Assembly (NCBI GenBank): GCA_017479985.1
Contig: JAFVBL010000030.1
Location: 2,509-66,508, forward strand
DNA length: 64,000 nt
DNA from: Alphaproteobacteria bacterium
Lineage (GTDB): Bacteria; Pseudomonadota; Alphaproteobacteria; RF32; CAG-239
Direction: 5' to 3'
Shown: piece by piece, positions 13,238 to 51,416 of the stretch
Numbering within the stretch: position 1 is the stretch's first letter
How the letters are laid out: the number at the start of each line of letters is the position of its first letter
Notes under the pieces: generated by a model
Databases searched by the model: none
What the model was told of the DNA's origin: nothing
What the model saw: only the letters and a program-made list of their open reading frames with translations
Made by a program: the position numbers and the translations under genes

Positions 13238-13818
13238 TTTATTCCTGCTCCTTTTAACAAGTTCATCGTTTCATACAGAGGCAATCCGACCACACCGGAA
13301 TACGACCCGACCATACGCGTCACATAACCGGCAAGCCGTCCCTCTATTTTATAGCCGCAAACACCTTTCCATTCGCCGCACGCAAGATATTCTTCCAAAT
13401 CTTCGTCCGACAACACTTTCATTGCAATTTTTGTAGTTACCGTGCGTTGTGCGATTTTGCCGTTTTTATCAAGCAGACATACCGAACTAATCACGCGATG
13501 TGCCCGTCCGGACAGCAATTTCAAATACTTCCGCTGTTCATCGGCATCTTTTGCTTTATGTAAAATCCGTTGTCCCACCGCCACAATCGTATCGCAGGCA
13601 AGCACATTTTCATTCGGACACAATACCGCAACGTGCTTTGCTTTTTCAAGTGCCATACGCCGCACATACGGCAATGGCATTTCGTGCGGCAAACAGTTCT
13701 CATCAATATCCGCCGGCTGAATTTTCTTCGGTTCATACGCAATTTGCCGCAACAAAGCAATCCGCTGAGGCGAACCTGATGCCAAAATAAAATCTTTTAC
13801 TTCTGTTTGATTTTGCAT
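13234..13818 (-). CDS. maf: Maf-like nucleoside triphosphate pyrophosphatase
   Basis: ILASGSPQRIALL at the N-terminus and YKIEGRLAGYVTRMVGSYSGVVGLPL at the C-terminus. Confidence 0.9.
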   Translation of the reverse strand: MQNQTEVKDFILASGSPQRIALLRQIAYEPKKIQPADIDENCLPHEMPLPYVRRMALEKAKHVAVLCPNENVLACDTIVAVGQRILHKAKDADEQRKYLKLLSGRAHRVISSVCLLDKNGKIAQRTVTTKIAMKVLSDEDLEEYLACGEWKGVCGYKIEGRLAGYVTRMVGSYSGVVGLPLYETMNLLKGAGIK

Positions 13819-34685: not shown

Positions 34686-35055
34686 GTATTTGGATTTTTT
34701 CGTGCAATATTGCACCGCGTTTTTTTCTTGAATGTGATTTTGCAAAAAATTATTTTACGGCTCAAGAATTTTTTTTTCACAAAATACACGTCAATCACGA
34801 AAACAGTACTTAAGCGATTATATTTTCATTATAATTTTTTTTCATAAAACTTATGCACAGGTGGATAAATTTGTTAACATATAAACATTCGAATAAACTA
34901 TATTTCTTATATGTAATAACATAAGGTTGTGTATAACAAATTGAATATACATTTTTTATATACAAACAAATTATATAAAAAGATGATTCTGTTCTTATTT
35001 TTTACTCAGTAAATTATTTTTTTCTTAAAAATCGATTCTGATAAAAAGAATCCAT

Positions 35056-35091
35056 AAAAAAGAATCCGCGTTTTTTCACGGATTCTTTTTT
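35056..35091 (-). terminator. Intrinsic terminator after the TolC-like gene
   Basis: AGAATCCG / CGGATTCT stem flanked by an A-run and a T-run (AAAAAAGAATCCGCGTTTTTTCACGGATTCTTTTTT), 14 nt past the stop. Confidence 0.7.
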
Positions 35092-35104
35092 ATAGGAGGT
35101 ATTT

Positions 35105-37048
35105 TTAATAATTCGGAACGGACGGCATCAGAACCTGAACATCATCCAATACTTGGTCCGTACATTGATTGCCGTGGCATTTTTTCATCACCGTTGCTCT
35201 GCGCCCTCTATCCAAACCGCGGACATTCATTGACGGAACATACGATTCGGTAATTGTCAGATTGAAAGTTATATAAGCAATGTTATTTTCTTCATCCATT
35301 GCATATACCTTAATCGGATAAATCCCGCCGTCTCCCGGCATTGCCAAACCCGTAAACGTTTGTGCGGCATTATCGTACTTCAACCATTTCGGTAAGGCCA
35401 TATTATCTTGCAATGTTGCCTTGGTCTGTATTTTTGTATCTGCACTCCACCCCATTTTTTGGAAAACGGAAGAAGGAACGTTTATATTGATACGTTCGCC
35501 GACACTGTATTTGACATTCGGCAAAACAGCGTTATCAAGCATAACCTCCACCGGCGGACGATGTGTCGGAATATCCACATCGGCAATATTCTTATCTTTC
35601 ACAAAATCACCTTCACGCCACTTTTCCATAGCATCACGCAATGCAACGGCAATTGTTGACGGCATTTCATTCACAATATTCGCCGGCACCGGATCCATAC
35701 CGATTGTTGCATATAAAGCACCGAGAGAATCCTGTAAATCAACATAAGCTAATGATGCCTTTATCTCGTCGGACAAAGCACGCGAAGCCTCAAGCAAACT
35801 TTTTTCGGCGTGACTTCCGTTGGCAGATGTAATATCTTCGGCAATATTTTCTGATGTACCGGCGATTTCCATCGCAATCTGAAAATCTTCCATTGAAGAC
35901 ATATAACGCGCCCAACCGATGTAAACCTGATTCAAAATAAGCGATGTCATACGCTGACGACTCAGTTCTTCCAAAGTGCCGCCGCTTAAAGGTTGATTGT
36001 TTTCATAAACGGAAATTGTTACTTCTTTGGCTTCATTGCACCATTGTTTATTATACGCATTCGGATCGCTTGCATAATTGATTCCCTGATTGTCACGGAA
36101 GTTATCGATAATAAAACTCAAATTATCTCCCGAAAGCAGATAATCGTGAACTTTCATTTCCGGACGATTGGTTAAAGCAAGCCATTCCAACTTTGCCAAA
36201 TCCGATTTAATTTCCGGCAGTGCAAAATTGCCGTATTCCTTGCCGGCAAGCACAAATTGTGTTTGCGGATGCAACCCCATCAAAGAAGCCAAACGCTCGT
36301 GTGCAGTTTCTAAATCACGCTTTAAGGCAGAAAGTTTTTTAACCGCTTCCATATATTTACGTTTACGCACAAGCTCTTCCGTCTCCGGATTTTTGCCTTC
36401 CACAGCCAATTCTTTAGCTTTGGCATTCATTTCATCGACATCAAGTGTAATATGTTCGATAGTATCGTCAATAGCAGGCAACAATCTTTGCGCGGTCAAA
36501 GCCTTCCAATACAAAACACGCGCTTCCTGCAAAATATTTTGCGCAACTTTACGGCTTTCTTCAGACGAAATACCTTGCTGCAAGGACGGATCGGTATTCA
36601 TCATATATACCGTTGACATATCCAAAATATTCCAAGCAACTTTCAAGTCCGGACTGGTATCCGAATAATTTGTGTTGATATATCCGGCATTTGAAACAAT
36701 TTCCGGTAATGCCGAATAACCGCCCTGTCCGGCTTTAATCAAATTTTCCTGATAACGTACAAGACGTGCGGTATAGTTATATTTAAGCGCAAGAGCCATC
36801 ACCATATACATATCAAGCGGCTTATCGAATTTTGTCGGCGTTTTCGCATACATATTCTGCATATCGGAATCATATCGAATGGTACTGTTCCAATCGGCAG
36901 CATACGCCGGATTTGGATTTGCGGCACCGTTCGCATCTTGGTATTGCTGAATATATTGAGCTTGCTGTTCCTGATAATATTTATGCGTATTCCGAGCGCA
37001 TGAAACAACGCTCAAAATGCAAATCATCAAACATAGCAACTTTTTCAT
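35105..37048 (-). CDS. TolC-family outer-membrane lipoprotein with a C-terminal Ig-like (dystroglycan/cadherin-type) domain
   Basis: Lipobox MKKLLCLMICILSVVSC followed by ~450 aa of OEP/TolC-like repeat helices. The C-terminal ~150 aa carry LPKWLKYDNAAQTFTGLAMPGDGGIYPIKVYAMDEENNIAYITFNLTI, a putative-Ig/He_PIG-type signature. Confidence 0.65.
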   Translation of the reverse strand: MKKLLCLMICILSVVSCARNTHKYYQEQQAQYIQQYQDANGAANPNPAYAADWNSTIRYDSDMQNMYAKTPTKFDKPLDMYMVMALALKYNYTARLVRYQENLIKAGQGGYSALPEIVSNAGYINTNYSDTSPDLKVAWNILDMSTVYMMNTDPSLQQGISSEESRKVAQNILQEARVLYWKALTAQRLLPAIDDTIEHITLDVDEMNAKAKELAVEGKNPETEELVRKRKYMEAVKKLSALKRDLETAHERLASLMGLHPQTQFVLAGKEYGNFALPEIKSDLAKLEWLALTNRPEMKVHDYLLSGDNLSFIIDNFRDNQGINYASDPNAYNKQWCNEAKEVTISVYENNQPLSGGTLEELSRQRMTSLILNQVYIGWARYMSSMEDFQIAMEIAGTSENIAEDITSANGSHAEKSLLEASRALSDEIKASLAYVDLQDSLGALYATIGMDPVPANIVNEMPSTIAVALRDAMEKWREGDFVKDKNIADVDIPTHRPPVEVMLDNAVLPNVKYSVGERININVPSSVFQKMGWSADTKIQTKATLQDNMALPKWLKYDNAAQTFTGLAMPGDGGIYPIKVYAMDEENNIAYITFNLTITESYVPSMNVRGLDRGRRATVMKKCHGNQCTDQVLDDVQVLMPSVPNY

Positions 37049-40989: not shown

Positions 40990-41511
40990 TTAATACAGTG
41001 TTTTTGTTTTGGAATAATGTTTCATCCTTATACGCGCAATTACATAAAAAATAGGATATCCCCAAATAAAACACAGCGAACACAGCATTGTGGTTTGAAA
41101 AACCATCGCCATCAACGGAAACCAAATATTACTGCTCCATCTATTTACCCTGAAATACAGCTTATTCCACGGGTCGCCGCAAATCCGATAACGATACATA
41201 ATCACTGCATTCCAAAAGGTGTGATAGCTTAAATTAGCGTAATTTACCGACTTTTTGATATTTTCTGCCGGCAATTCATAAGTTCCGTCGTACCAACTGT
41301 GCGGATTTTGCAATTTATCTTGCAAAATGTCTTCACGGCCGGCAATATCAAATACCATAGAGCGAGTGAAAATACGAATAACCGAAAAACACATACTTAT
41401 AACAAACAGATAGGTGGCTACCGTCAGCACCGAATACACCAACGCATCAGGTAAATTCTGCCATACAATCTGCAAGTCTTCCAACCATTTAGAAAAACCA
41501 TAATTATACAT
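40990..41511 (-). CDS. Hypothetical integral membrane protein
   Basis: 173 aa, Trp/Tyr-rich with 3-4 hydrophobic segments; no motif recognised. Confidence 0.45.
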   Translation of the reverse strand: MYNYGFSKWLEDLQIVWQNLPDALVYSVLTVATYLFVISMCFSVIRIFTRSMVFDIAGREDILQDKLQNPHSWYDGTYELPAENIKKSVNYANLSYHTFWNAVIMYRYRICGDPWNKLYFRVNRWSSNIWFPLMAMVFQTTMLCSLCFIWGYPIFYVIARIRMKHYSKTKTLY

Positions 41512-41682
41512 AACGTTTATTTTTTAAGGGTTTATAATATTTTAATCGTTAAACATTAAAGAATATTGCTGCTGATATTACAAACGCAAAAAAATCGTTA
41601 TAAAAAGCAACAATAATAGTGTAAATTATTCAAAATATGTTTTTTTTATATTGTTATTTTTATAAAAAGTCAAACATATAAT

Positions 41683-41708
41683 AAAAAATCCGCCGGTTAA
41701 GGCGGATT
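41683..41708 (-). terminator. Intrinsic terminator of greA
   Basis: On the minus strand: AATCCGCC TTAACC GGCGGATT followed by TTTTTATT, about 25 nt after the greA stop. Confidence 0.75.
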
Positions 41709-41730
41709 GATGTAAGATATTTTCTATATT

Positions 41731-42204
41731 TTAAAGCCATTTAACTTCCAAAATTTCATACGATTTTTTACCATTCGGCGCCAGATATTCGGCAATATCA
41801 CCGATTTCTTTACCTATCAGAGCACGGGCAAGCGGTGAAGAAAGTGAAATTTTGTGTTTTTCAATATCTGCTTCATAATCACCGACGATTTGATATTCGC
41901 TTTCTTCATCGGTATCCGTATTTGCCACCAAAACCGTTGCACCGAAACGCACAATATCACCGCTCATCGTGGTCGGATCAATCACTTGTGCACGGCTTAT
42001 AACAGCCTCCAGTTCCTGAATACGTCCTTCATTAAAACTTTGTTTTTCTTTTGCAGCGGAATATTCGGCATTTTCCGATAAATCACCTTTGGCACGTGCT
42101 TCGGCAATTTCGGCAATAATATTTGGACGTTCAACACCTTTACGTGTTTTCAATTCTTGTTCCAAAATAGCATACCCCACTTTCGTCAGCGGAAACTTTT
42201 CCAT
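41731..42204 (-). CDS. greA: Transcription elongation factor GreA
   Basis: PLTKVGYAILEQEL..., DLSENAEYSAAKE, and a C-terminal FKBP-like domain. Start at the second Met, which has GGAGGA 6 nt upstream. Confidence 0.93.
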   Translation of the reverse strand: MEKFPLTKVGYAILEQELKTRKGVERPNIIAEIAEARAKGDLSENAEYSAAKEKQSFNEGRIQELEAVISRAQVIDPTTMSGDIVRFGATVLVANTDTDEESEYQIVGDYEADIEKHKISLSSPLARALIGKEIGDIAEYLAPNGKKSYEILEVKWL

Positions 42205-42420
42205 ATTTTCCTCCATTTTTTATTAAATAAAAAGCACCTATACATTCATATAGGTTACATTAAAGATTAAAAAAGCCGACTGCCGAATTTATACCCGCAG
42301 CCGTTATTTATGCTATTATATTATTCCAAATAAAAATAAAATCAAGTATTTTTTATTTATATCTTTACTTTCAGTGTATTTTTTATTATACTCACAGTAA
42401 TAAAATAAGGAGTTATAAAA

Positions 42421-42576
42421 ATGGATACACAATTGATTGCGCTCGGTATAGGTGGATTTTTTGTTGCATTGATTTTATTTAAATTCATTATAAAAATACC
42501 TTTTTTACTCATAAAATACGGTATTTTGGCTCTTATAATCTATGTAATATATATGGTAATCAGCGGACAAATATAA
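42421..42576 (+). CDS. Small hydrophobic protein (51 aa), below the ORF-track length cut-off
   Basis: AAGGAG lies 8 nt upstream of the ATG. The product MDTQLIALGIGGFFVALILFKFIIKIPFLLIKYGILALIIYVIYMVISGQI has two predicted TM helices. A terminator follows immediately. Confidence 0.4.
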   Translation: MDTQLIALGIGGFFVALILFKFIIKIPFLLIKYGILALIIYVIYMVISGQI

Positions 42577-42578
42577 AA

Positions 42579-42600
42579 AAACCGGATTTTTTTCCGGTTT
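42579..42600. terminator. Bidirectional intrinsic terminator
   Basis: AAACCGGA TTTTTT TCCGGTTT flanked by A-run and T-run, between convergent genes. Confidence 0.7.
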
Positions 42601-42606
42601 TTTATA

Positions 42607-43020
42607 TTAAGATTCTTTTTTCGGCTTCATACGCTTACTGTGCGGCTTTTCCGGACGTTTTTGTAACATTGACTCATATTTTTTAATCTGTTCGGCAGTC
42701 AATATCTTTTTTATTTCAGCTTCATATTTTTCATTTACTTCACGCTCTTGTTCGTGCAATTTATTTATTTTTTCACGTAAATTTGCCGTTTCGGCTCTTT
42801 TTTTCTCATTCAATTTTTTCCATTGAGTTTTCTGTTCATCATTAAGATTTAAATCTTTCATCATAGCCATACTCATACCCCTGTGATGGCGCGGTGCTTT
42901 ATGTATATGTTTTTGCTGTTCCTGTTGCTCGACGGAAACTTCTGCCGATGCACTCACAGCCGGCAATATATAACCGAAAGATAAACTGAAAACAATCAAA
43001 AAAAACTTCAAACTTTTCAT
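42607..43020 (-). CDS. Periplasmic Spy/CpxP-family chaperone-like protein
   Basis: Signal peptide and two LTxxQ-type motifs (LNDEQKTQW, LTAEQIKKY) in a helical Lys/Glu-rich protein. Confidence 0.65.
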   Translation of the reverse strand: MKSLKFFLIVFSLSFGYILPAVSASAEVSVEQQEQQKHIHKAPRHHRGMSMAMMKDLNLNDEQKTQWKKLNEKKRAETANLREKINKLHEQEREVNEKYEAEIKKILTAEQIKKYESMLQKRPEKPHSKRMKPKKES

Positions 43021-43035
43021 ATTTTATTTCCTTTC

Positions 43036-43356
43036 TTATATTCTGGTTGTAAAATAATATTCCACACTTTTATCCAAAAATTCAATCATTTTATTATAAT
43101 TTTCCGGTAAATTTGTGATTTTATACTTATCATTTTTATCAAAGTGATAAAGAAAGCATTTTAATATCTGACCGTATATAAATGCAATTTTTTGCGCATT
43201 ACGACTTATATTAACATCTTTGTCGGCAACAGCACGAACAGCATCATAAAACTGATGAAAAGCATCTTTGTTAAATAAAGATTTTTCGTGCAATAAATAC
43301 AAAAAACTATTGTTTTTTTCTTCAAAATTATCCTGTAAAATTTGCTCTGCGTCCAT
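43036..43356 (-). CDS. Hypothetical cytoplasmic protein (106 aa)
   Basis: Clean ORF with no recognisable motif. Its helical, immunity-protein-like look is only an impression. Confidence 0.4.
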   Translation of the reverse strand: MDAEQILQDNFEEKNNSFLYLLHEKSLFNKDAFHQFYDAVRAVADKDVNISRNAQKIAFIYGQILKCFLYHFDKNDKYKITNLPENYNKMIEFLDKSVEYYFTTRI

Positions 43357-43457
43357 TTTTTTACCTTTTTATGTATCATTTTATAATTTAATTCCTTACG
43401 CTTAAATAAATAGTTAATTTTTATATTATATGATAAATTTATAAAAAGAGAGGAAAT

Positions 43458-43841
43458 ATGATTGCACGTATCGTTATAGGTGTTTTATTGGCTTATTTGT
43501 TGATTGCTTATTATCCTTTGGTTTTACGGGGACTGCCTTATTTTGTTATGCTGGCACTCGGTATAGCGGCTTTTTGGTGTCTTCGCGCCGCACCGGAACT
43601 TGCCGAACCGCTCGGTTACGGTATATTGATTGTACTTTTATGCTATATTGTTTTTTTGTTTTTACGCCAAAGAAATAAACTTAAAGAAATTATAAATAAT
43701 ACCAAACAGAAAAAAATAACATTACCTGTCGCAAATATAAAAAACCATCCGCAAATAAGCCTTTTGTTGACACTTATTCTTTATACACTTGGTTTAACAT
43801 TTGTTTTTTATTTAATTATTCTGCTTATTTATGTAAAATAA
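43458..43841 (+). CDS. Hypothetical membrane protein
   Basis: 127 aa, 3-4 TM segments, RBS GAGAGGA upstream. Confidence 0.45.
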   Translation: MIARIVIGVLLAYLLIAYYPLVLRGLPYFVMLALGIAAFWCLRAAPELAEPLGYGILIVLLCYIVFLFLRQRNKLKEIINNTKQKKITLPVANIKNHPQISLLLTLILYTLGLTFVFYLIILLIYVK

Positions 43842-43869
43842 ATTAGGAAAACTAAGATTAAAAACATAC

Positions 43870-44176
43870 AAAAATCAGGATAATGTGCGTAAATACAAAG
43901 AAGGATTTTTTCACAGTGTACAACAAAAGGTACATAAGAAAAAATCACTCTCTCCGGCACAGCCTTAATAAAAACTCGTAGAATTAGGTTAATACAAAGA
44001 AGGATTTTTTCACAGTGTACAATAAAAGGTACATAAGAAAAAATCACCCTCTCCGGCACAGCCTTAATAAAAACTCGTAGAATTAGGTTAATACGAAGAA
44101 GGATTTTTTCACAGTGTACAACAAAAGGTACATAAGAAAAAATCCTTCAAGTAGTAACCAATTATACGAGTTTTTA
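43870..44176 (-). repeat. Three tandem 99-bp units; the rho-proximal unit (44068-44176) is a complete extended hairpin element (copy B)
   Basis: Period is 99 bp (TAC at 43894, 43993, 44092). Copy B has outer arms TAAAAACTCGTA (44068-44079) / TACGAGTTTTTA (44165-44176). Its inner 12-bp stem is GAAGGATTTTTT (44098-44109) / AAAAAATCCTTC (44137-44148). The 27-nt loop is CACAGTGTACAACAAAAGGTACATAAG. The right arm overlaps the rho stop codon. Confidence 0.8.
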
Positions 44177-45427
44177 AGAGTTCATATTTTGGAAAAAGTC
44201 ATTATTATCTTTTGAATTTCTGAGTTTATCAAGCAAGAACTCCATACCATCGGTCATACCCATTTGCATTAACACACGACGAAGTACCCACATTTTGGTA
44301 AGTGTTGCTTTATCTACCAAAAGTTCTTCTTTACGCGTACCGGAACGGGTAATATCTATTGTAGGGAATAAACGTTTATCTGTTAATTTACGGTCGAGAA
44401 TAATTTCTGAATTACCAGTACCTTTAAATTCTTCAAAAATAACTTCATCCATACGAGAACCTGTATCAATCAAAGCTGTGGCAATAATAGTCAAAGAACC
44501 ACCTTCTTCAACGTTACGCGCCGCACCTAAAAGACGTTTCGGACGCTGCAAAGCATTTGCATCAACACCACCCGTCAATACCTTACCGGAAGACGGTACA
44601 ACAGCATTATAAGCACGACCCAAACGCGTAATTGAATCTAATAAAATAACCACATCCTTTTTAGTTTCAACCAAACGTTTGGCTTTTTCAATACATATTT
44701 CAGCAACCTGAACATGACGTGTTGCCGGTTCGTCAAAAGTAGATGAAATAACTTCACCTTTAACAGAACGTGTCATATCCGTAACCTCTTCCGGCCGCTC
44801 ATCAATTAAAAGTACCATTAAATATACTTCAGGGTGATTGGTTGCTATTGCGTGAGCTATATTCTGAAGCATAACGGTTTTACCCGTACGCGGCGGTGCC
44901 ACAATAAGACCACGCTGACCTTTACCTTGCGGAGATATTAAATCAATAACGCGTGTTGTATAATCTTTGTCACCGCAAATAATATCAAAATTTAATTTTT
45001 CAGTCGGATAAAGCGGTGTTAAATTATCAAAATTAACACGCATTTTTGATTTTTCCGGATCATCAAAATTTATTGTATTTATTTTTGTTAAAGCAAAATA
45101 ACGTTCATTTTCCTTCGGTGCTCTTATTTCACCTTCAACAGAATCACCTGTACGTAAAGCAAATTTTTTAACTTGTTGCGGTGAAACATAAATATCGTCG
45201 GCACTCGCTAAATAATTGGATTTTGATGAGCGTAAAAATCCGAAACCGTCCTGCATTACTTCTATTACACCGCCACCGCAGATAACCGTATCATCTTCGG
45301 CAAGTTTTTTCATAATAGCAAAAACCAAATCCTGAACACGCATAGAAGATGCATCTTCAATTCCCATATCTTCAGCCTGAGTCAATAACTCAGTCGGAGA
45401 CTTATCTTTTAATTCTCTTAAATGCAT
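44174..45427 (-). CDS. rho: Transcription termination factor Rho
   Basis: 417 aa with an N-terminal RNA-binding domain, Walker A PPRTGKT, and full-length similarity to Rho. Confidence 0.97.
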
Positions 45428-45863
45428 AAAAAACCTTTATTGATTGTTAAAAAAGAAAACGAACCATTGAAATATTCGCTAAACCTTATATATTTAATTT
45501 ATAAATAAATGTCAATCTTTTTTACACAGAAAAAAAAACATATAATATATTTAAAAAAAAGATTATTGTTATTTGTATATCCTTGTGCTTTATGTGTATA
45601 AAAATATATTATTTAATTTATAAACCGTTTTTATTTTTTGTATTTTAATAAATTTTTAACAATTCAATATGTTAATAAAAAGTTAATTTTTTTATCAACA
45701 TAATTCACAGTATGTGTAAAATTTTATCAAGATGTTAATAACTGATTTGAATGTTTTTACAATATGTATATATTTTGATAAAACTTTCATAAAAACGGAA
45801 TTTATACACAATTCAAGGTGTATTTGTGTATAAATTATATAACCTTTTGTTTTAGGATATAAA
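45428..45863. other. Candidate chromosomal replication origin (oriC); also holds the rho leader and coaE promoter
   Basis: 436-bp AT-rich gap between divergent rho and coaE-dnaQ. It has 3 perfect TTATNCACA DnaA boxes, 2 TTTTACACA variants, 2 8/9 matches, and two TTAA-N7-TTAA motifs. Confidence 0.45.
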
Positions 45864-46442
45864 ATGAAAATTATAGGAATAACAGGTTCTATCGGTTGCG
45901 GAAAAACATATTTAGCAAATATTATAAAAAAGATGGGATACAGTGTTTATAATCCGGATAAATGGGTGCGCGGACTTTATAAAAATAAGCAATTTTTAGA
46001 TGTTATAAAACAAAATTTTCCGACAACATTCGAAAACGGTGTATTTAATAAAAGAAGTTTGAGAAATTTGGTATTCGGCGATAATAATGAATTACATAAA
46101 TTAGAAAATATAATTCATCCTTTTTTGAAAAGAAAAATAAAATATTATATTCATAAATTCAGCCGTAAATCAGAATTTATATTTTTTGATGCGGCACTAT
46201 TGTTTGAAAAAAATTGGGATATTTATTGCGATTATATAATTGTTGCGGATATAGATGAAGAAACACAAAAACAAAGAGTTATAAAAAGAGATAATATAAC
46301 AGAAACCGATTTTTATAAAATAATGAAAGTTCAAATACCGCAATCGGAAAAAAGAAAATATGCTGATTATATCATAAATACAGGTCAATCGGAAAATATA
46401 AATAAAATACAAATAATTAGAATAATGGACGAGATAATATAA
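45864..46442 (+). CDS. coaE: Dephospho-CoA kinase
   Basis: IGITGSIGCGKT P-loop, ~190 aa, typical CoaE layout. Confidence 0.9.
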   Translation: MKIIGITGSIGCGKTYLANIIKKMGYSVYNPDKWVRGLYKNKQFLDVIKQNFPTTFENGVFNKRSLRNLVFGDNNELHKLENIIHPFLKRKIKYYIHKFSRKSEFIFFDAALLFEKNWDIYCDYIIVADIDEETQKQRVIKRDNITETDFYKIMKVQIPQSEKRKYADYIINTGQSENINKIQIIRIMDEII

Positions 46443-47143
46443 TGAGAGAAATTTGTTTTGATACCGAAACAACGGGAAAATTTGCAGAATACGGTGACAG
46501 AGTTATTGAAATAGGTGCAATTGAACTTATAGACCATATTCCAACCGGTAACACTTTTCACGAATATATAAATCCGGAGCGTGAAGTCCCTGAAGAAGCA
46601 ATAGCAATTCACGGAATAACAAACGAACAATTAGCTGATAAACCTAAATTTTATGAAATTGCGCAAAAATGGATTGATTTTGTGGGTGATGACAGTGTTT
46701 TTGTGGCGCATAATGCAAAATTCGATATGGATTTTACAAATATGGAGCTTAAAAAATGCGGATTTAAAACATACGATAATGACAGAGTTATAGATACATT
46801 AGCAATCGCGCGTAAAAAATTTCCGGGACAACACAACAGTTTGGAAGCACTTTGTAAAAGATTCGGGGTTGATGATTCGGCGCGAACTTTTCACGGCGCG
46901 TTACTTGATGCGCAGTTATTGGCAGAAGTTTATTATAAATTGATATACGGTGACGGAAACGCGGGTTTATTTGCTTCCGAAAATACGGTAAAAATACATA
47001 AAATTAAAAATAAAACCGCCATAAATATAATAGAAAGGAATTTTAATATTTCTGAAGCGGAAGTTGCCGAGCATCGTGCATTTTTGGAAAATAATATAAA
47101 AAATCCTCTTTGGTTGGCAGATGAAGTAAAAAAAGATGCTTGA
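46442..47143 (+). CDS. dnaQ: DNA polymerase III epsilon subunit (3'-5' exonuclease)
   Basis: Exo motifs FDTETTG, HNAKFDMDF and HGALLDAQLLAEVY. 1-nt overlap with coaE. Confidence 0.9.
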   Translation: MREICFDTETTGKFAEYGDRVIEIGAIELIDHIPTGNTFHEYINPEREVPEEAIAIHGITNEQLADKPKFYEIAQKWIDFVGDDSVFVAHNAKFDMDFTNMELKKCGFKTYDNDRVIDTLAIARKKFPGQHNSLEALCKRFGVDDSARTFHGALLDAQLLAEVYYKLIYGDGNAGLFASENTVKIHKIKNKTAINIIERNFNISEAEVAEHRAFLENNIKNPLWLADEVKKDA

Positions 47144-48407
47144 ATATTTAAAAAATATAAAAAAAATATATATAAACAAACAGATGTTGGTTTTATTGGC
47201 ACTCGGTTTTTCAAGCGGATTTCCTTTTTTACTTGTTTTCGGAACACTTACTTTATGGTTAAAACAATCCGGTCTGGCTTTAGCTGTGATAGGCAGTTTT
47301 TCTTTGGTTAAAATACCTTATTCCGTAAAATGGTTATGGTCACCGCTGGTTGATAATATAAAATTACCTTATATAAACAAACTCGGAAGGCGTCGGTCTT
47401 GGGCTGTTTTAATTCAAGTATTTTTATTTTTATCAATTATGATAATGTCGTGTTTAAATCCGGCTGAAAATTCTGTTTTAATGGCTGTTTTAGCGTGTAT
47501 AACGGCATTTTTATCAGCGTCGCAGGATATAGTGCTTGATGCATATCGTGTGGAGTGTTTTGAAAAAAATCCCTCTATGCAGGCAAATGGTGTGGCTATA
47601 TTTGTTTTAGGTTATCGTTTGGGATTGATTTATTCCGGTGCCGGCGCGCTTTATTTGGCAGCCTTATATGATTGGAACACGGCTTATAAAATTATGGCGA
47701 TTGGTGTTTTGGTTGGTTTAGGTGCTGTTTTATATACAACCGAGGCTGTGCAATATAATTATAAAAAAACAAAAAAAAATATAGGAGAATTTTTACAATC
47801 ATCGGTTATTCAACCTTTTAAAGATTTTATAAAAAATAAAAATTGGGGTTGGATTTTATTGCTTATTTTTACGTATCATTTAAGTAATGCTTATTTTAAT
47901 CCGGTTATAAATCCGTTTTATGATGATATGGGATTTACAAAAATAGAAATTGCCAACGTAATGAAACTTTATGGTATGATTGCGGCAATCAGCGGCGGAA
48001 TAGCCGGTGGATTGATTATAACAAAAATAGGTTTAAAAAAAGGTTTGTTATATTTCGGTATATTACAATGCTTATCCACACTGTTATTTTCATTGCAAGC
48101 GATATACGGGCATAATATGCTTTTATTTATTATTGTTGTAATTGTGGAAAATTTTATTTCCGGTTTGGCAACAACGGCGCTTGTGGCATATATTTCTTCG
48201 CTTTGCAATAAAGCATACACGGCAACGCAATATGCACTTTTATCTTCGGTTATGGGAGCGTCACGCGATATATTTTCATCAACAAGCGGTATTGTGGCAC
48301 AGTTTTTGGGATGGAAATTATTTTTTATGGTATCGGCATTTATGAGTTTGCCGAGCCTTATAATTATATTTTTATGCTTAAAAGATGAAAAAAAGACATT
48401 AAAATAA
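47136..48407 (+). CDS. ampG: AmpG-family MFS permease (muropeptide transporter-like)
   Basis: LALGFSSGFPFLLVFGTLTLWL...PYSVKWLWSPLVD is the AmpG N-terminal signature; 12-TM MFS. Confidence 0.7.
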   Translation: MLEYLKNIKKIYINKQMLVLLALGFSSGFPFLLVFGTLTLWLKQSGLALAVIGSFSLVKIPYSVKWLWSPLVDNIKLPYINKLGRRRSWAVLIQVFLFLSIMIMSCLNPAENSVLMAVLACITAFLSASQDIVLDAYRVECFEKNPSMQANGVAIFVLGYRLGLIYSGAGALYLAALYDWNTAYKIMAIGVLVGLGAVLYTTEAVQYNYKKTKKNIGEFLQSSVIQPFKDFIKNKNWGWILLLIFTYHLSNAYFNPVINPFYDDMGFTKIEIANVMKLYGMIAAISGGIAGGLIITKIGLKKGLLYFGILQCLSTLLFSLQAIYGHNMLLFIIVVIVENFISGLATTALVAYISSLCNKAYTATQYALLSSVMGASRDIFSSTSGIVAQFLGWKLFFMVSAFMSLPSLIIIFLCLKDEKKTLK

Positions 48408-48457
48408 AAATAGTGCTTGCAAAACAAAATAAAGTGTTTTATGTATAATTCTGTTAT

Positions 48458-48533
<76 letters not shown>

Positions 48534-48542
48534 ATAAAAAAA

Positions 48543-48563
48543 ATACCGCCAAAAAGGCGGTAT
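48543..48563. terminator. Bidirectional intrinsic terminator
   Basis: ATACCGCC AAAAA GGCGGTAT flanked by A8 and T6. It serves the tRNA (+) and the glycosyltransferase gene (-). Confidence 0.75.
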
Positions 48564-48588
48564 TTTTTAAAGGTGTTAAAAAATAAAA

Positions 48589-50115
48589 TCAGCGCTGTTT
48601 ATTTGTTTTTCCGTTTAAGGATTTACCGCTCATTCTTTGCGGATTATCTTCCAAAACTTTTTGCACCAGATTATCTTTTTGTTCCGAAATTTGCTCCCAA
48701 GTCAGGTTGGCACGTACATATTCATAACCGTTTTGTGCAATTTGACCGCGTAATTCATCATTATTAAGCAATAATTTCAATGCTTTAACCTGACGTGCAC
48801 GGTCCTTTTCCTGAGAAGGCGCATATATACCGATAACTTTACTATAATCTATTGAATTATCTCTGATATCGGCACAGTGCGCAAAATCATTAAATCCGCT
48901 GCGACCGACAATAACCGCTGCTTTGCATCCCATTGCTTCAATAGGAACCATACCGAATGCTTCGTTTAAGCTCGACATTACAAAAATATCGGAAGCATTA
49001 TAAACGTGCGCCATTTCGGTTTGATTTAAAGAAGGTAAGAAAATTACATTATTTTCAAATCCACGTAAAATATCTTTACATTCTTCTGTAACCGGATTAC
49101 CTTTTTCGCCGCTGACCATATAAATAACGTCAGTATTTTCAAACATAATTTCAGCCATTGAACGTGAAAGTTCGCTGAAACCTTTGTCGCGTACCACACG
49201 TCCCAAAGAAGATACAACTTTTTTACCTGATAAATCAACAACTTGAGTATCTCCATTCAAATCAACATATTCAAATTGATGTTTTAATTTATTTTTCTGC
49301 GGAGCCGAAAGAGGTTTGAATACTTTATCATTATACCCCGGCGGAATAACCGTAACCTTATTTAAATCGGATAAATACGGCTCAACCGCCAAACGATCCG
49401 ATTCGTCAGGTGATGTGGCAATAATAATATCCGCACGGTCAAACTCATATTTTTCTTGAGCAATTCGTTGTTCAAAACCGTGCCAAGCCCATTCTTCTTC
49501 GCTTATTTGACCTGCTTGATATTGCGGCAAATTACGTTCGTATTTTTTATGTCCCAAAGAATGGCTTGTAACCAACATAATCGGCCGGCGACCCGTAAAC
49601 TTTTCTATTTTTGTGCAAAGCATATCTGCCGCTATCATACCGTCACGATAATGCCCTTCAACAACTTCGATATTATCAAGCTCTTTGTTTTTCTTGTAAT
49701 ATTCAAACAAATTATCGACAAGTTCCGGAATAACCGGCACAATTTCTTCTTTTGGTAAAAACATAAAATTACCGCCGGCAGGTACACGCAATACGCGACT
49801 GCGGATTTTTTCACTTTCGTGCCACTGTATTTCAACAGCGTAATTTAAATCGGATTTATTATATTCTTTGAATTGACCGCCGAATTGCGGACAAATACGT
49901 GGATCAACGCGGCGCGTAACCAAATCAACATTATATTTGCCGGAACTTGTCGCCAAAGCTTTAACATAATAAACCTGACCGCCGGTATCCTGACCGGTAA
50001 TAACTTTTTTTGAAAGAACTTTTGTAACCGGAAAACCGAATTCGTCGTTTTCAAAACCGAAATCACCTTCGACCAGTCCGTGAGTCGAAAACATTACTTT
50101 TAATTTTTTTGACAT
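48589..50115 (-). CDS. Sucrose-phosphate-synthase-family GT4 glycosyltransferase (SPS / mannosylfructose-phosphate synthase-like), no phosphatase domain
   Basis: The N-terminal motif GQDTGGQVYYV is characteristic of SPS/sucrose-synthase-type enzymes. It has a GT-B C-terminal half (…SLNEAFGMVPIEAMG…). 508 aa. Confidence 0.7.
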   Translation of the reverse strand: MSKKLKVMFSTHGLVEGDFGFENDEFGFPVTKVLSKKVITGQDTGGQVYYVKALATSSGKYNVDLVTRRVDPRICPQFGGQFKEYNKSDLNYAVEIQWHESEKIRSRVLRVPAGGNFMFLPKEEIVPVIPELVDNLFEYYKKNKELDNIEVVEGHYRDGMIAADMLCTKIEKFTGRRPIMLVTSHSLGHKKYERNLPQYQAGQISEEEWAWHGFEQRIAQEKYEFDRADIIIATSPDESDRLAVEPYLSDLNKVTVIPPGYNDKVFKPLSAPQKNKLKHQFEYVDLNGDTQVVDLSGKKVVSSLGRVVRDKGFSELSRSMAEIMFENTDVIYMVSGEKGNPVTEECKDILRGFENNVIFLPSLNQTEMAHVYNASDIFVMSSLNEAFGMVPIEAMGCKAAVIVGRSGFNDFAHCADIRDNSIDYSKVIGIYAPSQEKDRARQVKALKLLLNNDELRGQIAQNGYEYVRANLTWEQISEQKDNLVQKVLEDNPQRMSGKSLNGKTNKQR

Positions 50116-50203
50116 TATTTTTCTCCTGAAATTTTATAACAGGTATAGTATCAAAAATAAAACAAAAATCAAGGTAAATATAAAATTAAAGTATAAATAA
50201 AAA

Positions 50204-50251
50204 AACAACACCTCAGCCACAAAACAAAATTTGTAAGACCGAGGTGTTGTT
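50204..50251 (-). terminator. Large-loop hairpin terminator candidate
   Basis: 11-bp stem AACAACACCTC / GAGGTGTTGTT with a 26-nt loop. On the minus strand it is followed by TTTTTTATTT, 14 nt after the stop of the 50265-50855 gene. Confidence 0.45.
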
Positions 50252-50264
50252 AAGCGAAACAATT

Positions 50265-50855
50265 TCAAGTTACAAAGCGGCGCTTGTTCATTTCTGATTT
50301 TGCAACAAGATATTCTTCGTATTCATCGCGAGAAATATAAAAATCCTGATATTTTGTCAGTAGTACGGCAAAAGATTCTTTAAGTTCATCATCTTTCAGT
50401 TTGGCATATTTTTTCTGATAGCGCTTAATAAGTTCTTCACGTGCAAGCGCAAAATATATTGCAGCTTCGCGCGGATGCTCACATTCTTTATCCAATAAAG
50501 ACCATTGCCGCATAAAAGCGTTATACACTAAAATATCCAACGTCATTTCTTTAAGTGCAATTACAAAGTCCTGTTCTCTTACCGATTCGATGCATAACAA
50601 ATCTCGCCGGTCGAGTTCCTTAATAATCAATTTATGTCGTAAAATAATTGATTTTTCAGGTTTTTTGTAAGGCTCAAGTTTGTTTCCGCGTATCTTTTTT
50701 TCGGTATCGGACCACTCTTTCCAAAGATTTTCTTCCGACAGCTCTCGGATTTCTTTTTCTATTTTCTCAAGACGCTTGAAATTGAAAAATTTGATGATGC
50801 TGATAAGTGCACAGATACAGCAAATCACCACAAGAATAATAAAAATCTGCTCCAT
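50265..50855 (-). CDS. Hypothetical membrane-anchored protein
   Basis: N-terminal TM (IFIILVVICCICALISII) and a helical Lys/Glu-rich body; no motif. Confidence 0.45.
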   Translation of the reverse strand: MEQIFIILVVICCICALISIIKFFNFKRLEKIEKEIRELSEENLWKEWSDTEKKIRGNKLEPYKKPEKSIILRHKLIIKELDRRDLLCIESVREQDFVIALKEMTLDILVYNAFMRQWSLLDKECEHPREAAIYFALAREELIKRYQKKYAKLKDDELKESFAVLLTKYQDFYISRDEYEEYLVAKSEMNKRRFVT

Positions 50856-50924
50856 AATTGTTAAATTTTAATTATACAATTTTGTACCTATAATATATCG
50901 TATAAACAAAAAATTCAAGCAAAA

Positions 50925-51416
50925 TCACATAATAAAAACAATACCGTTCAAATCAACAACGGCCCAATTTAAGAAAGAGGCAAACAAAAGCCATAAAAAA
51001 TAAGGAATAAGCATCAAACCGGCAAGTTTATTGATTTTGTAGAACATAAAAATCATCATAAGCGTAATAACATCAAGAATCACCAAAACCGTAAAGCCGG
51101 CCAAAAATTGTGCGTTGTAAAAAAAGACATAACACCACAGAACCTGCAAAAACATATTAAGAATAAATGTTGTTGCTGCCGGTCGCACAAGCTGTTTTTT
51201 GTCACTGTTTAAAATTAAATCAAACGCCAGAACAAGCAGAATATATAAGATACCCCATACAATCGAAAAATAAATATCGGGCGGCGTAAATTCCGAAACT
51301 TTGATTTGCGGATAAAATCCGCTCATTGCTTCATTATTAAAATAAGAACAAAATGCACCGGTTACAATAACGACAAACAAACTGTATAAAAAATTATAAA
51401 AAGGTTTTTCAAACAT
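50925..51416 (-). CDS. tspO: TspO/MBR tryptophan-rich sensory protein
   Basis: 5-TM, 163 aa, with PPDIYFSIVWGILYILL and a C-terminal FLNWAV typical of TspO. Confidence 0.85.
   Translation of the reverse strand: MFEKPFYNFLYSLFVVIVTGAFCSYFNNEAMSGFYPQIKVSEFTPPDIYFSIVWGILYILLVLAFDLILNSDKKQLVRPAATTFILNMFLQVLWCYVFFYNAQFLAGFTVLVILDVITLMMIFMFYKINKLAGLMLIPYFLWLLFASFLNWAVVDLNGIVFIM

Follow-up and report, generated by a model that had tools for sequence, protein, structure and literature searches.

Location and composition of the gap

The 64,000-nucleotide stretch of DNA analysed here (the window, C24:2509-66508) belongs to an alphaproteobacterial metagenome-assembled genome (MAG), a bin of 43 contigs and 1.18 Mb, 83% complete. 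The element under study is a gap of 436 bp between two divergent transcription units, rho and coaE-dnaQ, evaluated as a candidate chromosomal replication origin (oriC). Positions are those of the window, unless preceded by a contig label; C24 is the contig which contains the window. The gap and the genes around it are the following:

44174-45427, minus strand: rho, transcription termination factor; left boundary of the gap, with transcription directed away from it (TIGR00767, 679.7 bits versus a cut-off of 509)
45428-45863, no strand: candidate oriC gap, 436 bp, gene-free, 17% guanine plus cytosine (GC)
45864-46442, plus strand: coaE, dephospho-CoA kinase, transcribed away from the gap (TIGR00152, 141.6 bits)
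46442-47143, plus strand: dnaQ, epsilon subunit of DNA polymerase III (Pol III) (TIGR01406, 254.3 bits); the operon coaE-dnaQ, 45864-47143, is the right boundary
47136-48407, plus strand: ampG, next after coaE-dnaQ

An initial annotation, made from the sequence alone, had described a gene-free, AT-rich gap of 436 bp between rho (minus strand) and coaE-dnaQ (plus strand). This description is confirmed by the profile matches of the boundary genes, by a check of the open reading frames (ORFs) and by base composition. No credible ORF is found in the gap, the only ones being of 38 amino acids or less, with low-complexity translations; no Rfam match is present in the gap, nor anywhere between 43 and 47 kb. 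The GC content of 17% compares with about 42% for the genome, and the gap is one of only two 436-bp stretches of the assembly with a GC content of 22% or less, the other being C19:101. A promoter scan of the gap returned 11 consensus matches, versus 7.1 +/- 3.2 in shuffled sequences; the gap being very AT-rich, the scan is uninformative there.

On a larger scale, GC content falls to 29-34% over about 10 kb around the candidate origin (window about 41000-51000), versus 40-46% on the left side of the window. Six contigs (C24, C40, C41, C28, C26 and C32) are each 2-4% below the rest of the bin in GC content.

A cluster of DnaA boxes

The gap contains three perfect matches to the DnaA-box consensus TTATNCACA, and six more which match it at 8 of 9 positions (8/9). 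All are listed below; percentages indicate conservation in 34 genomes featuring the same gap, given separately, for some boxes, for the specified positions and for the free (N) position of the consensus.

45520-45528, plus strand: DnaA box B1, TTTTACACA, 8/9; TTATNCACA in the human-gut lineage; specified positions 92% conserved, N position 53%
45593-45601, minus strand: DnaA box B2, TGTGTATAA, perfect; specified positions 89% conserved, N position 47%
45670-45678, minus strand: weak DnaA box, TGTTAATAA, 8/9; 78% conserved; overlaps the left half of CtrA-type site b (see below)
45692-45700, plus strand: weak DnaA box, TTATCAACA, 8/9; 85% conserved
45701-45709, plus strand: match TAATTCACA, 8/9; only 56% conserved, in a region deleted in the human-gut lineage; probably non-functional
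45713-45721, minus strand: DnaA box, TGTGTAAAA, 8/9; 74% conserved; perfect TGTGNATAA in several relatives
45733-45741, minus strand: weak DnaA box, TGTTAATAA, 8/9; 99% conserved, the best-conserved non-consensus block of the gap
45802-45810, plus strand: DnaA box B6, TTATACACA, perfect; left arm of an inverted pair; specified positions 100% conserved, N position 53%
45825-45833, minus strand: DnaA box B7, TGTGTATAA, perfect; right arm of the inverted pair; 98% conserved; 31 bp upstream of the coaE ATG

Most boxes, both strong and weak, are located in the right two thirds of the gap (45670-45833). The boxes and variants reported in the initial annotation, as well as two TTAA-N7-TTAA motifs described further on, were found to have exactly the sequences and coordinates given there, including the spacer of 14 bp between the arms of the inverted pair B6/B7. 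Two further 8/9 boxes, absent from that annotation, are the TGTTAATAA ones at 45670-45678 and 45733-45741. Each of them is carried by one copy of a 15-nt direct repeat, TCAA[T/G]ATGTTAATAA (also given as TCAAKATGTTAATAA), whose copies, at 45664-45678 and 45727-45741, are 63 bp apart, corresponding to six helical turns; the first copy overlaps CtrA-type site b.

The number of boxes was compared with that found in 20,000 dinucleotide-preserving shuffles of the gap. Perfect boxes are 3, versus 0.062 expected, and matches to the relaxed pattern TTWTNCACA are 5, versus 0.157 expected; no shuffle reached either number. The gap was also ranked among all windows of the 1.18-Mb assembly, at least about 17% of the genome being unassembled and therefore outside the ranking. 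Of the 74 perfect boxes found in the assembly, three fall within the gap, which is the sole 450-bp window with so many. It is the top 450-bp window for perfect boxes and for the relaxed pattern, and also the top one for matches at 8/9 or better (9-10, versus 6 in the next best). In the other stretch of comparably low GC content, C19:101, there are no boxes at 8/9 or better. By these computations, and by the comparison with relatives reported below, the DnaA-box cluster of the gap is conserved, and unique in the genome.

Less dense groups of boxes occur elsewhere. Two perfect TTATNCACA boxes lie within 450 bp at about 34851-35300 of the window (C24:37359), in an AT-rich region upstream of nrdD, where they probably mediate DnaA control of ribonucleotide reductase. 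The second-densest window for matches at 8/9 or better is found outside the window analysed here, at C36:36401, with 6 in 436 bp, none of them among the perfect-box clusters.

Conservation of the gap in related genomes

The arrangement in which rho (minus strand) is separated by 412-470 bp from coaE-dnaQ, or coaE-dnaQ-ampG (plus strand), is kept in 33 relatives. The relatives are uncultured alphaproteobacterial MAGs, obtained from rumen, other ruminant gut sites, horse faeces and human gut. Their DnaQ proteins range from 85% down to 56% identity to the one encoded in the window, and rho, in the same position, is 88-99% identical.

The boxes hold both position and orientation in the relatives, at gap offsets of about 93 (plus), 170 (minus), 280, 375 (plus) and 398 (minus). 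Conservation is 0.90 for the specified box positions, 0.48 for the N positions and 0.71 in the remainder of the gap; in a permutation test, five 9-mers placed at random attain 0.90 with P = 1e-4. The human-gut lineage has perfect matches at all four main boxes, with A, G, C or T as the fifth base and the other eight fixed. The pair TTATNCACA-N14-TGTGNATAA is nearly invariant, while relatives differ freely in the 14 nt which separate B6 from B7. Among the weaker boxes, the one at 45733-45741, ATGTTAATAA, is almost invariant, and is replaced by a perfect TGTGAATAA in two relatives. Box B2 decays to TGTTNAT in part of the rumen lineage.

Strand asymmetry and a probable replication terminus

The initial annotation had indicated cumulative GC skew as a check of its prediction. 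C24 features the deepest V in cumulative G-C among contigs of at least 20 kb, and its raw minimum is at 45527, inside the gap. Since skew also tracks gene orientation, per-gene skew was regressed on orientation and replication arm. With orientation regressed out, the arm effect at the third codon position (GC3) is +0.137 +/- 0.022 in C24, and the best of the 63 inter-ORF breakpoints of the contig, by orientation-corrected GC3 skew, is the rho-coaE gap. After correction, a strong origin-like switch of sign is seen in C24 alone, out of the 22 contigs of at least 20 kb (-0.19 to +0.09, F = 38.7).

The same procedure was applied to four relatives, indicated as G031, G032, G033 and G036, over 264-400 kb of sequence surrounding the homologous gap. 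On each of the four contigs the homologous gap is the densest window for perfect boxes (3-4, versus 2 or less elsewhere). The raw skew minimum falls within the gap in G032 and 4 kb off in G033. After correction, the GC3 arm effect ranges from +0.10 to +0.17 in the four relatives, corresponding to 8-14 standard errors, and in three of them the best-fitting break coincides exactly with the homologous gap (G031, out of 291 ORFs; G033, out of 346; G032, out of 341). The switch in sign of strand asymmetry at the gap, computed for the genome under study, is found also in relatives.

A candidate for the opposite end of replication was found by using the core pattern CATAA-N6-TTATG; a scan with the 28-mer of E. 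coli dif had given no clear match at 21/28 or below.

C41:62787-62814, outside the window: dif-like XerCD site, TTGTCGCATAATATATATTATGAATAGT, 80 bp from the cumulative-skew maximum of its contig

The site, also given as TCGCATAAT[A/G]TATATTATG, has its core exactly once in 11 of the 19 genus genomes, and the reversed control gave 0 matches; replication probably terminates there. The presence of a dif site, in single copy, at a skew maximum indicates that the skew reports replication, and makes the gap and the site on C41 a coherent origin-terminus pair. The raw skew peak of contig C40 (28.3 kb, height about 1300) was rejected as a terminus, being mostly an effect of gene orientation, with dif on C41 instead. 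On C40, also outside the window, a second terminus-like switch is seen after correction at about 52 kb (about 52.4 kb; +0.22 to -0.17, F = 40), besides the dif site on C41; it could derive from an inversion, an island or a mis-join.

Gene neighbourhood

In Caulobacter and Rickettsia the origin neighbourhood is the hemE side, and the Caulobacter origin, Cori, adjoins hemE (PMC1914354, PMC6393856). The initial annotation had proposed that the rho-coaE junction is a collapsed version of this neighbourhood, left after the loss of heme genes. The idea gains support from the gene order of two other genomes, and from the absence of hemE throughout the genus. In L048, a closed alphaproteobacterial MAG chromosome (OZ246977.1), rho-hemJ-hemE is followed by a 298-bp gap of 22% GC, containing 7 perfect boxes, and then by maf-aroE-coaE-dnaQ. 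In L070 (Sulfitobacter), the order is mnmE-rho-hemJ, a gap with 1 perfect and 3 one-mismatch boxes, and again maf-aroE-coaE-dnaQ. No hemE was found in any of the 19 genus genomes searched, 12 of them high quality, and no tblastn match to hemE, hemJ or aroE was obtained in the assembly under study.

The locus would therefore correspond, as the comparison of gene orders supports, to the classical hemE-side origin of alphaproteobacteria, where hemJ/hemE and maf/aroE have been lost or moved, so that rho directly faces coaE. Changes at the boundary are already known within the family of such origins, as for COG1253 in Wolbachia (PMC1914354).

A distant Maf-like gene is found at 13255-13791 of the window (C24:15763-16299, minus strand), about 32 kb from the candidate origin. 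Its product is 27.5% identical to Sulfitobacter Maf, which suggests either that maf was relocated or that the Maf-like gene is a paralogue.

CtrA-type sites, candidate unwinding tract and other motifs

Besides DnaA boxes, the gap contains four elements which may take part in the function of an origin:

45530-45590, no strand: candidate DNA-unwinding element, predicted from the AT-rich tract that melts most easily; located between boxes B1 and B2, which face each other
45645-45659, no strand: CtrA-type site a, TTAA-N7-TTAA(C), found at the aligned position in some two thirds of the 34 gaps, in most cases as GTTAA-N6-GTTAA
45672-45686, no strand: CtrA-type site b, TTAA-N7-TTAA (GTTAA-N6-GTTAAT), with both half-sites 80-90% conserved
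45725-45737, plus strand: single match to the IHF consensus, WATCAANNNNTTR (TATCAAGATGTTA)

When pairs of TTAA are counted at each spacing in the 34 gaps, N7 dominates, with 54 sites in 29 gaps versus 3-16 for most other spacings; the count of 27 for N12 corresponds to the distance between sites a and b. The genome encodes a CtrA protein of 228 amino acids (C4, about 4.9-5.6 kb, minus strand), recognized by NF045991 with 400.5 bits versus a cut-off of 350.

The least stable 40-mer of the gap is 45540-45579 (dG -36.5 kcal/mol). It falls at the homologous place in 17 of the 34 genomes, where the sequence is poorly conserved and the composition is kept. The unwinding element may accordingly be placed in the 45530-45590 tract, or in the adjoining one at 45600-45660. 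No GATC or SeqA-type site is present in the gap.

Evaluation of the candidate origin and of alternative explanations

Box density, skew, conservation and the lack of a rival cluster all support the interpretation given in the initial annotation: to judge from these comparisons of sequences, the rho-coaE gap is very probably the chromosomal replication origin, of the ordinary DnaA-box type. DnaA-ATP would bind to the three consensus boxes (45593, 45802, 45825) and to the near-consensus box at 45520; DnaA would then fill the conserved weak boxes (45670, 45692, 45713, 45733), forming an oligomer. Melting would take place in the very AT-rich tract of about 45530-45590, or in that of about 45600-45660, and forks would leave both ways, with the consequence that rho and coaE-dnaQ would both be co-directional with replication. 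Phosphorylated CtrA, bound at the two conserved central sites, one of which overlaps a weak DnaA box, would probably block initiation, as in Caulobacter.

A number of observations, reported in this and in the two following paragraphs, weigh against this interpretation or against parts of it. The genome is a binned MAG, and a mis-join is possible; the same junction is nevertheless present in 33 independent assemblies. In G031 and G036 the raw skew slope breaks at the gap and the far arm is noisy (the right arm, in G031). The gap contains no GANTC (CcrM) sites; in Caulobacter these are accessory and dispensable (PMC6393856). The IHF match is weak, its WATCAA half being only about 60% conserved. 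No conserved DnaA-trio run is found, as runs of at least 4 triplets occupy a fixed place in only 6 of the 34 genomes. As to the CtrA-type sites, two TTAA-N7-TTAA motifs in the gap, versus 0.45 expected, are not significant alone (P = 0.08 in shuffles), and a genome-wide test of TTAA spacing in intergenic sequences shows no specific enrichment of N7 (31, versus 32 for N3 and 29 for N10). The reading of these motifs as CtrA boxes relies on their positional conservation and on the presence of ctrA in the genome, and not on their number in the single sequence. On the whole, an action of CtrA on the origin appears somewhat favoured.

The strongest pair, formed by the perfect inverted boxes B6 and B7, lies 31-62 bp upstream of the coaE ATG, and could also, or instead, be a promoter operator. 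According to this explanation, all boxes would only serve as an operator through which DnaA acts on two divergent promoters, those of rho and of coaE-dnaQ, coupling the expression of Rho, or of the proofreading subunit of Pol III, to DnaA status; the origin itself would be elsewhere, for example in the unassembled part of the genome, next to dnaA. Another box pair of the window does lie in a promoter region, upstream of nrdD (about 34.85 kb), and part of the genome is unseen: dnaA itself, its Hda-like paralogue (hda), parB and mnmE were not detected in the 83%-complete bin. The absence of dnaA likely reflects a missing region of the assembly, and not gene loss, since the gene is present in all of the 30 relatives searched, including 18 out of 18 congeners, and the sequences flanking it in the congeners also have no match in the assembly, contig ends included. 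The congeners, whose genomes are of about 1.5 Mb, versus 1.18 Mb here, also have an Hda-like gene. The dnaA loci of 12 relatives, however, feature no box cluster: within 1.5 kb of dnaA, perfect boxes are absent in relatives of the same clade, and a single one is found in one more distant relative. In G036, one contig carries both dnaA and the gap, some 24 kb apart, and the only box cluster of that contig is the gap. An equally dense cluster elsewhere, which in the initial annotation was to speak against an origin at this site, is found neither in the assembly nor next to dnaA in relatives. Moreover, the corrected switch in asymmetry maps to the gap in C24 and in three of the four relatives, and nine boxes over 320 bp of 17%-GC DNA far exceed the needs of an operator. 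The two roles are not exclusive; that of operator alone is quite unlikely.

In E. coli, loci of the datA and DARS type have been described; to our knowledge, none has been established in alphaproteobacteria. Were the gap a similar locus, titrating or reactivating DnaA, the true site of unwinding would lie at a distance of a few kb, for example at about 51.4 kb, where a second local minimum of raw skew (51434) is almost as deep as the one in the gap (-2289 versus -2318). Also in G036 the gap ranks third, the best corrected break lying at 6 kb from it and the raw minimum at 60 kb. The dip at 48.6-51.4 kb of the window is explained, however, by three minus-strand genes, and correction for orientation leaves the gap as the best breakpoint of the contig. 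In addition, no other stretch of the assembly has more than two perfect boxes, and the gap is the most AT-rich stretch near the switch. A titrating or reactivating locus is, on this evidence, very improbable.

That the matches are functionless and due to chance, in a spacer with 83% A+T where short A/T-rich motifs are frequent and TTAA-N7-TTAA alone is not significant, may, on sequence evidence, practically be dismissed, as 0 of 20,000 shuffles reached the observed box counts, C19:101, with a similarly low GC content, has 0 boxes at 8/9 or better, and in 33 relatives the boxes hold their positions with the N base free to vary.

Going back to the gap as the replication origin, a more elaborate version may tentatively be considered. 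The locus could be a hybrid origin, combining boxes of E. coli-grade consensus, in place of the deliberately weak ones of Caulobacter, gating by CtrA through two conserved tandem sites, one of which competes with a weak box, and an invariant pair, 31-62 bp upstream of coaE, which doubles as an operator, tying coaE-dnaQ to DnaA occupancy. This combination is possible, on the doubtful side; if true, this clade of host-associated anaerobic alphaproteobacteria would have a CtrA/DnaA origin of about 320 bp, minimal and accessible to experiments.

The predicted origin, along with the terminus indicated by dif on C41, provides an anchor for a clade of rumen and human gut which is uncultured and of which only fragmented MAGs are known. 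Such an origin/terminus pair helps in ordering contigs and in estimating growth rates from metagenomes by peak-to-trough ratios; should a member of the clade be cultured, the 436-bp fragment would be a natural start for a replicating vector. The origin appears to have kept its chromosomal address (rho ... coaE-dnaQ) after hemE was lost with heme biosynthesis, and origin finders based on hemE would therefore miss it. The understanding of how origins work is unchanged.

Similarity to described origins

The locus would be a DnaA-box oriC of the known alphaproteobacterial hemE-neighbourhood type, here with consensus-strength boxes and with the heme genes gone. Seven features were used by Ioannidis et al. 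2007 (PMC1914354) to recognize origins of this type, and all of them are present, save a convincing IHF site and an immediate hemE/COG1806 boundary. (a) Boundary genes are homologous, as shown by the order in L048 and L070 and by the junction in 33 relatives, hemE and COG1806 themselves being absent; (b) the region is intergenic and within 200-1000 bp, measuring 436 bp here and 412-470 bp in relatives; (c) DnaA sites are present, (d) at the highest density in the assembly, (e) AT content is above average, (f) the sites are conserved and (g) the skew shifts at the locus.

The origins listed for Caulobacter crescentus (Cori), Rickettsia, Wolbachia and Ehrlichia are 383-620 bp long (PMC6393856, PMC1914354). 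Like them, the gap is intergenic, of about 400 bp, much more AT-rich than the genome, and coincides with a skew shift. Of the traits typical of Cori, the gap shares the presence of DnaA boxes together with TTAA-N7-TTAA sites, one of which (site b) overlaps a DnaA box at 45670-45678, and the presence of ctrA in the genome; this overlap recalls the competition between CtrA and DnaA at Cori (PMC6393856). The flanks also correspond, with rho-(hemJ-hemE) on one side and (maf-aroE)-coaE-dnaQ on the other, in the order seen in L048 and L070. Unlike in Cori-type origins, hemE and COG1806 (duf299) are not at the locus, where the immediate boundaries are rho and coaE, facing each other directly. Cori has only weak W and moderate G boxes, whereas perfect boxes of the E. 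coli-type consensus TTATNCACA are found here; Cori has five CtrA sites, whereas here there are two CtrA-type sites, no GANTC and no convincing conserved IHF site.

The gap between hemE and maf in L048 is similar in its flanking order (rho ... gap ... coaE-dnaQ), in being AT-rich and in containing perfect TTATNCACA boxes in both orientations. It differs in that it keeps hemJ-hemE and maf-aroE and has no TTAA-N7-TTAA; the two gaps are not alignable at the nucleotide level.

When compared with a generic DnaA-dependent oriC, of the E. coli type, the gap differs in not being next to dnaA/dnaN, and in having no GATC sites, no recognisable 13-mer repeats and no conserved DnaA-trio array. As in the E. 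coli-type oriC, high- and low-affinity 9-mer boxes, in both orientations, are found beside an easily melted AT-rich tract, and the cluster is unique in the genome, located at the skew minimum, opposite to a dif site at a skew maximum.

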